Part shown: positions 59,081 through 64,000 of the stretch, piece after piece | Position numbering within the stretch: position 1 is the first letter of the stretch | How the letters are laid out: every line of letters begins with the position of its first letter | Assembly (NCBI GenBank): GCA_023428375.1 | Contig: JAEYYR010000002.1 | Span: 302,077 to 366,076, forward strand | Direction: 5' to 3' | Length of the DNA: 64,000 bases | From: a bacterium | Lineage (GTDB): Bacteria; Babelota; Babeliae; Babelales; Babelaceae | Notes under the pieces: model-generated | Databases searched by the model: none | Told to the model about the DNA's origin: nothing | The model's input: only the letters and a program-made list of their open reading frames with translations | Translations under genes and position numbers: made by a program

Positions 59081-60364
59081 ATGCGCAGTAGAATGGTTGA
59101 TAAATTCAACGTTCTACTGAGTGAAAATATGGTATATCTGTTATTATTTTTAATATTGTTTTCTAGTGCAAAAGATGAAACATATGGAATTTTGCATAAA
59201 GATATCATGAATATAGTGACTGACGAGGTATATTATGAATCTTTAAAGGATCTCCATTTAGCGACAAATATAACAGAATGTTACAAAGCGATGGTACCAT
59301 TCAATAATTTAGTAAAGATAAATAAAGCTATTTATACATCTAATAAATATTCGTTACGTGCACTGAATGCATGTGCTCGATTTAAAATTGACGACTTTAA
59401 TGTTCAGCGCGAGAAATTATTTAGTAAACGGCATAGCTCTCATTTAGAATGGTTTCTTTCAAATCCATTTTGTCAGCCAAGTGAAGATGTTTCATGGTAC
59501 ACTTTTACGCCATTAAATGCACAACAACGCGAGATTGTTTTTCAGCAACGAATAGATATTAACCAACCGGTTAAGAATGTTAACGTGACGCATTATATTG
59601 ATATGCGCCCTGGTTATTATGCATTAACTAATATTCTTCCATTGCAGATTGTTTGTACAACCGGAGAAATCGCCGATATTCGATTTTTTATTCGTGACTG
59701 CGGAGCAAATCCAAATGCCGTGGATTCTAAAGGACAAACAGCCCTTATTCATTTGTGTAGCAACAAAGAGATTGGATATTATCAAGGCTTAGAAAAGCAA
59801 TTAGCAATTGCACAGGAATTAATTAAGTTTGGCTGTGATCCCAATATGCAAGATAAAACCGGTACTACTGCTTTAATGTACGCCATTAAGACAGATTATT
59901 ACGTGCAATGTGACAAATGGACAGATAGTGGAAATCCATTTTGCACGATTCCTGGAGTTCGTCCTCATCAGATGTTAAATTTACCATTAATTGAATATCT
60001 GATAGATGTCAGTGATGTAAATATCATTGATAACGACGGCAATTCTGCGTTATTGCTTGCATCCCATACGTGTTTAAATCCTTATATTATTCAAAAATTA
60101 CTCTGTCGCAATGCTCAAGTTACCATTAAAAACAAATTGGATGAATCGCCTTTGCATTGGGCATATTATTGGAAAAAAGTTTTAAAAAAATCAATCAATC
60201 AAGAAATTATAAATTCATTAATAAGTAACCTGCCTCCAAGACGGCTTAAGCGTCATACCCTCTGTAAAGATACTATGCTTTATAATCTCCTTTATGGACA
60301 TTATTCAGCCTTGAAAAATATAGTAGCAGGGCCCTATAAGTTATTCTTTGCAGGACATGAATAA
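59081..60364 (+). CDS. F-box-like + ankyrin-repeat protein, array member 1
   Basis: N-terminal hydrophobic segment, an F-box-like region (YYESLKDLHLATNITECYKAMVPFNNLVKINKAIY), then ANK repeats (GQTALIHLCSNKEIGYYQGLEKQLAIAQELIKFGCDPNMQDKTGTTALMYA ...). Confidence 0.7.
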   Translation: MRSRMVDKFNVLLSENMVYLLLFLILFSSAKDETYGILHKDIMNIVTDEVYYESLKDLHLATNITECYKAMVPFNNLVKINKAIYTSNKYSLRALNACARFKIDDFNVQREKLFSKRHSSHLEWFLSNPFCQPSEDVSWYTFTPLNAQQREIVFQQRIDINQPVKNVNVTHYIDMRPGYYALTNILPLQIVCTTGEIADIRFFIRDCGANPNAVDSKGQTALIHLCSNKEIGYYQGLEKQLAIAQELIKFGCDPNMQDKTGTTALMYAIKTDYYVQCDKWTDSGNPFCTIPGVRPHQMLNLPLIEYLIDVSDVNIIDNDGNSALLLASHTCLNPYIIQKLLCRNAQVTIKNKLDESPLHWAYYWKKVLKKSINQEIINSLISNLPPRRLKRHTLCKDTMLYNLLYGHYSALKNIVAGPYKLFFAGHE

Positions 60365-61551
60365 TGATATTTTTTATTTTCAATTTTATATGGGTATTCA
60401 GTCTAATAGGAATGGATGGATTACCGAGTGAAATAATAGATATTATTGTGTCATATTCTTACGATAAAGAATTATTAAAAACAGCAAGCTCTATTACAGA
60501 TCTTTATAAATCTATTGAACCATTTAATCGGCTTGCTCGATGTAATAAGAAATACTCTGAATGTATACGCAAAAGTCTTACCATCAAAGAATTATTTAAA
60601 TCACGATTAGCAGAAATTGATAAAGAACGAAATATTTTTCTAAATAAATGGGAAACTTCCGCTGTTGAATGGGTTAGGACGAGCGAATTATGGGGAAAAG
60701 AAAGATGTGCTGTAAGATGCCTTAAGCCAATTCCTGTATATGTGGCACGATTTCTGAGAAATAATCAAAAAGACATTAACCAAAGAATAGCTGAAGTGCT
60801 TCATATATACTGGTTTCATGGCAGTTCTCGTATAACAAGTTTTACCAATATTTTACCGCTGCAAATTTGTTGTATTAGTTCAGAAATTAAAGACATTAAA
60901 TTCTTATTAAATTTAAATGCAGATCCAAATAAGAAAGATTTTGAAGGGCGAAATGCTTTAATGTTATTGTGTTCGTATAAGGATATAGGGATTTCTCAAG
61001 GTCTTGAAAAGATGTATTCGATTGCACAAATTTTAATACAGCACGGTACCGATGTAGACCTCCAAGATTCATCGGGCAAAACAGCGCTCATGTATGCATT
61101 TAGAGCATTTCAAGTTCCCTGTGAATACTGGGATGAACGCGGCGGATATTGTCAAATAGGAGTGCCTCATACCGCATATAACATTCCATTAATTTATCTT
61201 CTGTTGGGATCAAGCAATAACCTTAATCTGCAAGATAATGAAGGAAATACTGCGTTATTTCATGCGTTGCGAAATTATCATGATATTGTCATCATTGATG
61301 AGCTTATTGCTAGAGGTGCCTCGGTAAATATAAAAAATAAAGATAATGAAACGCCATTATCGCTTGCCAGAAAATATTATAATTATGATTCAAAAGTAAT
61401 TAGTCGTATTGATTCCTTAACATCAGCAAGAATAAAGCGCTTATCGTATGGAAGAAACAATCCTTTAATACATAGCCTTGTTGGTTTTTTGCAACTCGGA
61501 TCATCAATTTTTTCTATTCGAAAAACGTCTTGTTTTACTAGGTCGAATTAA
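60364..61551 (+). CDS. F-box-like + ankyrin-repeat protein, array member 2
   Basis: LPSEIIDIIVSYSYDKELLKTASSITDLYKSIEPFNRLARCNKKY (F-box-like), then ANK repeats aligned with member 1 (NILPLQICCISSEIKDIKFLLNLNADPN..GRNALMLLC). TAATG overlap with member 1. Confidence 0.7.
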   Translation: MIFFIFNFIWVFSLIGMDGLPSEIIDIIVSYSYDKELLKTASSITDLYKSIEPFNRLARCNKKYSECIRKSLTIKELFKSRLAEIDKERNIFLNKWETSAVEWVRTSELWGKERCAVRCLKPIPVYVARFLRNNQKDINQRIAEVLHIYWFHGSSRITSFTNILPLQICCISSEIKDIKFLLNLNADPNKKDFEGRNALMLLCSYKDIGISQGLEKMYSIAQILIQHGTDVDLQDSSGKTALMYAFRAFQVPCEYWDERGGYCQIGVPHTAYNIPLIYLLLGSSNNLNLQDNEGNTALFHALRNYHDIVIIDELIARGASVNIKNKDNETPLSLARKYYNYDSKVISRIDSLTSARIKRLSYGRNNPLIHSLVGFLQLGSSIFSIRKTSCFTRSN

Positions 61552-61625
61552 AATATACACAATGCAAAATTTCTTATAAAGCCTTAGGGACTTCCAGAAG
61601 CTAGCTATTATTCATATCACTTTGT

Positions 61626-62323: not shown

Positions 62324-63574
62324 ATGCTCAAATTTTTGCTTTTCTTATGTATAACGATTTTGAATTCTATCGAGAAACAGCCACAGGAAATATGGAATGA
62401 AATTCTTACTCATAGTTATAATCGACATGATATAGAGTCAGCAGAATGTTTGGTGGATATTTATCGATCGTTAGAAGTTTGCAATAAATTGGCTCGATGT
62501 AATAGGCAATGGTATACATTAGTCCATAATCTTTTTGATCAAAAATATGATAATTCTAGTGAGCTTACTGTTAAAGAATTTTGCCAGAGAAAATTAGGTC
62601 TAATTCAGGATGAACGGAGTGATGTTTTATCATATTGGCTTTCGTGGAGAATTTCTTGGAAATATTATAATCCACCGTATGACAAAAACTCGTGGGGACA
62701 TAAATACGGAATAATAAGTTATTGCAGAATTCCTCAGGAACAAAGAGAATATATTGAATCACATGTGCATGATATTAATCAACCATTAATGAATATTGAG
62801 CTGGAATATGCCCACAATGGAGGTTATGGTAATTCAAGTTTTTTATTTGTGTTACCATTGCATATTACATGTCTCAGTAAGGAATTGCCCGATATACGTT
62901 TTTTAATACGATGTGGTGCTGATGTTAATAAACAAAATCGTTTTGGTAAACATGCGCTCAATTGTATGGTCAGTTATGAAAAGATGGGATTTGCTCCAGG
63001 CTTTAAGAAGGCATATAAAGTTGCAGAACTTTTACTGCAAAACGGTTTAAATATTAATCAACAAGATAATTTAGGCAAAACGGCTCTTATGAATGTGATG
63101 AGAAAATATGATGTTCCATTACGTTCTTTTATGAGAGATGGTGGTTATACACAAGGAGGTGGAAGATCGACGGGCTTTCCCTTTAAATTAGTTAAATTGC
63201 TTATTGACGCCACAACCGATTTTAATATTCCTGATAATCAAGGCAACACTCTATTATTCTATTTACTCAAAAAATATCCTAATTATCGCAAAAAATATTC
63301 ACTCCTAGAAATATTAAAAAAAATAATCGATAAAGGTGCGAATGTGAATGTAATGAATGAGATGAAACAAACTCCGTTAGACATTGCACGAGAAAAACAA
63401 GATGCAGAAATTATTTCGTTTATAGAATCTAGAACAACTCAGAAGTTAATACGATTAATGTATGCTCAAAATAATCCATACCGTGAATATTCTTATTTAA
63501 TTCAACAGTATGTAGTACCAAAGTTTAAATCAGCTATCAAAACGATCCAGCATTTAAATTTTAAATTCGTATGA
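62324..63574 (+). CDS. F-box-like + ankyrin-repeat protein, array member 3
   Basis: IWNEILTHSYNRHDIESAECLVDIYRSLEVCNKLARCNRQWYTLV (F-box-like), then ANK repeats (FVLPLHITCLSKELPDIRFLIRCGADVNKQNRFGKHALNCM ...). Confidence 0.7.
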   Translation: MLKFLLFLCITILNSIEKQPQEIWNEILTHSYNRHDIESAECLVDIYRSLEVCNKLARCNRQWYTLVHNLFDQKYDNSSELTVKEFCQRKLGLIQDERSDVLSYWLSWRISWKYYNPPYDKNSWGHKYGIISYCRIPQEQREYIESHVHDINQPLMNIELEYAHNGGYGNSSFLFVLPLHITCLSKELPDIRFLIRCGADVNKQNRFGKHALNCMVSYEKMGFAPGFKKAYKVAELLLQNGLNINQQDNLGKTALMNVMRKYDVPLRSFMRDGGYTQGGGRSTGFPFKLVKLLIDATTDFNIPDNQGNTLLFYLLKKYPNYRKKYSLLEILKKIIDKGANVNVMNEMKQTPLDIAREKQDAEIISFIESRTTQKLIRLMYAQNNPYREYSYLIQQYVVPKFKSAIKTIQHLNFKFV

Positions 63575-64000
63575 AAAAAATATTGATAGCAGGCCTCGTT
63601 TTTTTTAATTATTTAAGTACCAACGAATTACCGTTATGTGACGATCTTATAAAATTATTAGCGTCAAATTATTTAATCGATTACTCAGCTTTGAAGGATT
63701 CAAAATCTATTCGTGAATTGTATTGTTCAATAGCTCCATTTAACTCTTTAGCCAAAGTCAATAAAAAATTAAACGCGATTTTGGAGCACTGTCGATTGCA
63801 ATTAAATAAAAATCTGGAAAGTAAATCTTTACAAACATATTTTGATGATAGATTATCGCATTTAAAGCAAACACGACAGGAGCATGTGAATAACTGGTGT
63901 GCGCCATATATAAAGTTTGATTATTATTACCAAGCAACAGGACAATGCAGAGGATTTGCAGGTAATTTTCAAATCGTAGATGTACCAGATTCTTCTTTTT
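63571..64000 (+). CDS. F-box-like (+ankyrin?) protein, array member 4, 3'-truncated by the window end
   Basis: ATGA overlap with member 3. LPLCDDLIKLLASNYLIDYSALKDSKSIRELYCSIAPFNSLAKVNKKL matches the N-terminal module of members 1-3. Not in the ORF track because there is no stop before nt 64000. Confidence 0.5.
   Translation, partial: MKKILIAGLVFFNYLSTNELPLCDDLIKLLASNYLIDYSALKDSKSIRELYCSIAPFNSLAKVNKKLNAILEHCRLQLNKNLESKSLQTYFDDRLSHLKQTRQEHVNNWCAPYIKFDYYYQATGQCRGFAGNFQIVDVPDSSF

Follow-up and report, generated by a model that had tools for sequence, protein, structure and literature searches.

A tandem array of four ankyrin-repeat genes

We analyzed a 64-kb stretch of DNA (hereafter the window) on a parent contig of 1.12 Mb and ~35% GC. 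Positions 59081-64000 carry four paralogous genes, c1 through c4, all on the + strand, and one small antisense gene. The first gene, c1 (59081-60364), encodes 427 amino acids counted from the first ATG, with the likely start at M17 (position 59129), and is the paralog most diverged from the rest. It meets c2 (60364-61551; 395 amino acids), our reference copy, in a 1-nt stop/start overlap with the sequence TAATG, and c3 (62324-63574; 416 amino acids) similarly overlaps c4 by 4 nt in an ATGA junction. The part of c4 inside the window (63571-64000) is N-terminal and comprises 143 amino acids. Pairwise identity among the paralogs is 22-33%, and a tblastn search of the window with c2 recovers c3 (E = 7e-66), c1 (3e-52) and the N-terminal part of c4 (2e-7). 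Thus, the same-strand paralogs with overlapping ends and the single antisense gene described in the initial annotation are borne out. No rRNA is found within the window.

That annotation also held that c4 continues past the window end, which is correct, and that the array is larger than what is visible, which is not. In coordinates of the parent contig (L001; window coordinate minus 52323), c4 reaches an in-frame TAA at 11764-11766 (window 64087-64089), 89 nt beyond the window end. The stop is followed in the same frame by a 207-amino-acid ORF carrying precomputed ankyrin matches, and mutS starts 3′ of this remainder at L001 position 12569. The array therefore consists of exactly four genes, three intact and one interrupted.

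The antisense gene (61626-61997, − strand) encodes 123 amino acids with a signal-peptide-like N-terminus and does not belong to the ankyrin paralogs. It is kept in the related locus L002 (67% amino acid identity), and a weak counterpart (23% identical) occupies the same position and strand in L085, another relative, where the site is empty of ankyrin genes. Because of this counterpart, the antisense gene may be older than the array.

Every protein follows the same order: a hydrophobic leader, a helical module of ~50 amino acids, a helical and beta-rich spacer, approximately five ankyrin repeats, and a shared C-terminal tail motif (KRLxYAxNNP). In c2, these parts correspond to the leader (residues 1-18; 60364-60417), the F-box-like module (residues 19-66; 60418-60561), a helical linker extending to residue 100, a beta-rich middle region with a DINQ(P/R) motif (residues 101-161), about five ankyrin repeats (residues 162-352; 60847-61419) and the conserved tail, here KRLxYxxNNP (~61414-61464). 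A leader likewise precedes the module of c1 (~59183-59332), which is degenerate in that ILHKD replaces LPxE, and the c1 ankyrin repeats span ~59630-60235. Gene c3 starts with a leader followed by a module of the form QPQEIW...LARCNRQWY (~62372-62515), and its repeats start at 62846. The visible portion of c4 holds a leader and a module (~63622-63768).

Conservation between orthologues is highest in the ankyrin half

The C-terminal ankyrin repeats proposed in the initial annotation are readily recognized. Pfam models Ank_2, Ank and Ank_4 match c1 through c3 with E-values of 1e-11 to 1e-18, and these families exceed their gathering cut-offs in c1, c2, c3 and the related proteins P0002, P0003 and P0205. 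An AlphaFold2 model of c2 reaches pLDDT values of 76-95 across the greater part of residues 160-360, apart from a loop of low confidence (255-266), and a Foldseek search with this model retrieves DARPins and gankyrin (E ~1e-9; TM-scores as high as 0.84 relative to the target).

Comparisons between orthologues yield omega values of ~0.2-0.3 which, although dS is saturated, indicate purifying selection on these sequences. The ankyrin half, at 71-72% amino acid identity, is the best-kept part between orthologues, and in the one orthologue pair that was split by domain (c2 and P0002) it is again the most conserved. Purifying selection is strongest on this half (omega ~0.18-0.19). Diversifying selection on the repeats, which the initial annotation had proposed looking for, is unsupported because the ankyrin half is the best conserved in this measurable pair.

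Copy number varies between constant flanks

All three loci lie between the same flanking genes, with UvrA-p273-NUDIX at one end and MutS at the opposite end, whereas the number of enclosed ankyrin genes differs: four here, two in L002, and zero at the empty NUDIX–mutS site of L085. The two L002 copies are orthologues of c2 (57% identical) and c3 (70% identical), and the c3 orthologue carries an in-frame stop. Counting both genomes, in-frame stops interrupt two array genes out of six, so that part of the family appears to be decaying. It is less likely that the stops, which fall between the module and the ankyrin domain in both c4 and the c3 orthologue, instead yield separate products.

When 1.84e9 representative proteins were searched exhaustively by HMM, the module turned up in only about eight, namely the family members and one distant member, P0205. 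The latter shares the family layout of leader, module (residues 81-137) and ankyrin repeats. The bacterium carrying the array is most likely a small-genome, low-GC, intracellular member of the Dependentiae/Babeliales, an assignment made from one marker, MutS, at 46-51% identity. The best named relatives of this MutS are from Candidatus Dependentiae/Babeliales (46-47% identity), and its closest matches (48-67%) are metagenome proteins. The organism is probably protist-infecting.

Sub-threshold similarity of the N-terminal module to F-box domains

The N-terminal motif reported in the initial annotation is real, and can be summarized by the family consensus LPxDIxxxIxxYSxDxxxLxSAxxIxDLYxSxxPxNxLARCNKK, which includes one invariant Tyr. 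Modules begin with LPxE(I/V)xxxI and carry an (A/S)R(C/V)NKK(Y/F/W) motif. The start is LP or IP in c2, c4, P0002, P0003, the L002 orthologue of c3, and P0205, but is QP in c3, which lacks the Leu, and LH in c1, which lacks the Pro.

The proposal that this module resembles an F-box finds recurring evidence that stops short of the Pfam gathering cut-off of 20.5 bits. One Pfam search with full-length c1 through c4 and their N-termini gave no F-box match at E≤10. Another gave a sub-threshold match for c3 (13.1 bits, E=0.093) on LARCNRQWYTLV, aligned to profile positions 23-37. No natural family member reaches the cut-off; the best, P0205, scores 14.9-15.2 bits (E 0.021-0.025). The family HMM consensus comes closer, at 18.7 bits (E=0.0017 for F-box and 0.014 for F-box-like), but also remains below. 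Nevertheless, F-box and F-box-like are the sole Pfam families that recur for the module (with the consensus and two members, always sub-threshold), the matches extend over both domain halves, and 10 reversed or shuffled control sequences produce no F-box match.

Profile and structure comparisons are similarly divided. With hhalign, the module aligns to six PDB-verified F-boxes at P=0.003, a score reached by none of 400 column shuffles, and the LPxE/helix 1 stretch is 40-42% identical to Skp2 (P=0.003-0.024). The top PDB match of the module model in Foldseek, among 350,542 chains, is SKP2, but with E=2.5 and from a model whose pTM is only 0.36. The predicted lengths of helices H1, H2 and H3 and the invariant aromatic residue are compatible with an F-box. 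In contrast, no F-box protein is retrieved at E≤10 when 177,635 PDB sequences are searched with the module profile, and an HMM built from six F-box sequences ranks family members 52nd to 484th among 2,953 background ORFs, which is not above background.

Most of the signal derives from ~15 columns (LPxEIxxxIxxY), and there are two candidates for helix 3, the V-C-K-R-W-type element. One is the invariant Tyr of I-x-D-L-Y, which lies one residue off the canonical spacing. The other is the RCNKKY or CNRQWY sequence ~17 residues further on, the segment that Pfam aligns in c3. Joining both F-box halves requires either a 1-residue shift or a ~17-residue insertion. Moreover, the module is among the fastest-evolving parts of the protein (40% identity between orthologues, versus 71% for the ankyrin half), which is unexpected for a domain that grips the highly conserved Skp1. 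Thus, the F-box identity of the module is neither confirmed nor refuted.

Candidate export signals

All members have leaders of 10-20 uncharged hydrophobic residues, with maximal Kyte-Doolittle values (10-residue window) of 2.4-3.2, that directly precede the module in every member but P0205. Judged by hydrophobicity only, these are candidate Sec-type signal peptides; some, including that of c2, lack a positively charged n-region, and cleavage sites are partly canonical at best. A second leader-bearing ankyrin protein, which has no module, is encoded at window positions 5983-6756. No secretion-system or dedicated effector-translocation genes are evident in the 64-kb window, and no T4SS genes occur in the window or in a 21-kb stretch reaching ~9.6 kb beyond it. 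Dependentiae genomes encode 98-126 ankyrin proteins, ~63-78% of which carry signal peptides and have been proposed to be secreted into the host (PMC6561590, PMC4378268), and a type II secretion system is conserved across the phylum (PMC6561590, PMC4378268, PMC4776705).

Comparison with known systems

Signal-peptide ankyrin families are already described in Dependentiae, and the module-bearing family would be a further member of this type. As in those families, a leader (here a candidate Sec-type signal) is followed by ankyrin repeats in paralogous, presumably secreted proteins from small, low-GC genomes of bacteria that infect protists, as the organism here probably does (PMC4378268, PMC6561590). 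Babela massiliensis, for example, encodes 126 ankyrin proteins, 79 with signal peptides, and Chromulinavorax destructans encodes 98, of which 78% have signal peptides (PMC4378268, PMC6561590). The array proteins differ in having their own ~50-amino-acid helical module and ~60-amino-acid spacer, neither of which is in Pfam.

The initial annotation likened the array to Legionella pneumophila AnkB (Lpg2144/LegAU13). The order of parts holds, since both place an F-box or F-box-like bundle at the mature N-terminus ahead of ankyrin repeats, and both bacteria would live inside amoebae or other protists. In its details, however, the parallel breaks down. The C-terminus of AnkB, a Dot/Icm substrate, carries a CaaX farnesylation box, and its F-box is recognized by Pfam and binds host Skp1, whereas all modules of the array are sub-threshold. 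No CaaX box is present in c1 through c3, which end in FFAGHE, CFTRSN and LNFKFV, respectively, without Cys at position −4. The array proteins also have a candidate Sec-type leader rather than a Dot/Icm-type signal, a larger number of ankyrin repeats, an additional middle region and a tandem arrangement, and their organism is probably a member of the Dependentiae rather than Legionella.

Ank-PRANC proteins of poxviruses and of Orientia, Wolbachia and Rickettsia likewise pair ankyrin repeats with an F-box-like motif that is shortened or diverged and scores low with standard F-box models. Large families of such paralogs are reported from intracellular parasites (PNAS 2008 reference cited in PMC6561590). 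Their F-box-like element is C-terminal, whereas the array module is N-terminal and the tail carries KRLxYAxNNP instead; no PRANC match is found in Pfam at E≤10. Eukaryotic F-boxes (PF00646/PF12937; Skp2, Fbxw7, beta-TrCP, Cdc4, TIR1, Fbxo2) share with the module the LPxE(I/L)xxxI start, three short helices (predicted for the module) and an aromatic residue ~27-28 residues past LP, and the (C/V)N(K/R)(K/Q)(Y/W/F) element recalls VCKRW. The module differs in that only its consensus approaches the Pfam cut-off and in the shift or insertion noted above, and the likeness is one of sequence and of predicted structure.

Possible functions of the array

We consider it probable that the array is an ancient set of tandem genes, particular to this lineage, for exported ankyrin-repeat proteins, with three copies intact and the fourth broken by a stop codon. 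The sequences themselves show the structure and paralogy of the genes, the ankyrin repeats, how narrowly the family is distributed, the history of the locus and an F-box signal below threshold, whereas secretion, targeting to the host and binding of Skp1 are steps that we infer. The ankyrin proteins would leave the bacterium via Sec and be released towards the host cell, as the literature proposes for the signal-peptide ankyrin families of the phylum, and a host protein would be the binding partner of the conserved ankyrin surface. As a tentative extension, somewhat short of an even chance, the module could be a highly diverged F-box for docking to Skp1 of the host, and the ankyrin protein would then serve the host SCF ubiquitin ligase as a substrate receptor. 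In its strongest form, which we regard as doubtful, the module would be a true but extremely divergent, Sec-exported F-box, possibly with an extra inserted helix, defining a new bacterial F-box subclass that links four ankyrin receptors to the SCF of the protist host.

A serious competitor, albeit one we would not call probable, is that the proteins are indeed secreted as ankyrin effectors but that the module, a helical domain peculiar to this lineage, has no relationship to the F-box. The LPxEI likeness would then reflect chance or convergence, a host protein would be bound or sequestered without SCF, and the module might mediate dimerisation, direct the protein to a membrane or organelle, or be where a secretion chaperone binds. 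Such a domain fits the absence of any natural member at the Pfam cut-off, the failure of the module profile and the six-sequence HMM to single out F-box proteins or family members, the insertion needed to align both halves, the fast evolution of the module and its poor model. It fits less well with the F-box as the sole recurring Pfam family in the face of clean controls, with the hhalign result and the top-ranked SKP2 match, and with the predicted helix lengths and aromatic residue.

If instead the proteins never reach the host, they could act within the bacterium's own periplasm or envelope, for example as chaperone-like or self-protective ankyrin proteins comparable to Bdellovibrio Bd3460 or to AnkB in the periplasm of Pseudomonas, and the F-box-like motif would be functionless. 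The Sec-type leader as the only evident export signal, the lack of dedicated translocation genes in the window, and a housekeeping neighborhood in which co-transcription with uvrA and the NUDIX gene is possible are all in keeping with this arrangement. We nonetheless judge it quite unlikely, given that the family is missing from the close relative L085 despite the same flanks and varies in copy number, a pattern that better fits accessory host-interaction genes, and that signal-peptide ankyrin proteins of the phylum are interpreted as secreted (PMC4378268, PMC6561590). Less probable still is a family in general decay, with little present function, comprising remnants of an older effector expansion lost by genome reduction. 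The in-frame stops, the degenerate c1 motif and the loss (or original absence) of the array in L085 point in this direction, but c1 through c3 persist as intact ~400-amino-acid ORFs despite their extensive paralog divergence, and the omega values, albeit with saturated dS, and the conservation of the ankyrin half speak for maintained function.

Concluding remarks

If the F-box reading is wrong, the array is a further secreted ankyrin family restricted to its lineage, and hundreds of this type have been reported from these bacteria before. If it is true, then F-boxes can be too divergent for domain databases, and F-box mimicry in intracellular bacteria would be under-counted. Should the module bind Skp1, Dependentiae, a phylum that has been little studied, would gain its first concrete family of effectors that hijack a ubiquitin ligase. 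Regardless of the function of the module, the presence of zero, two or four copies between shared housekeeping flanks provides a natural series for the growth and decay of effector arrays in reduced genomes.

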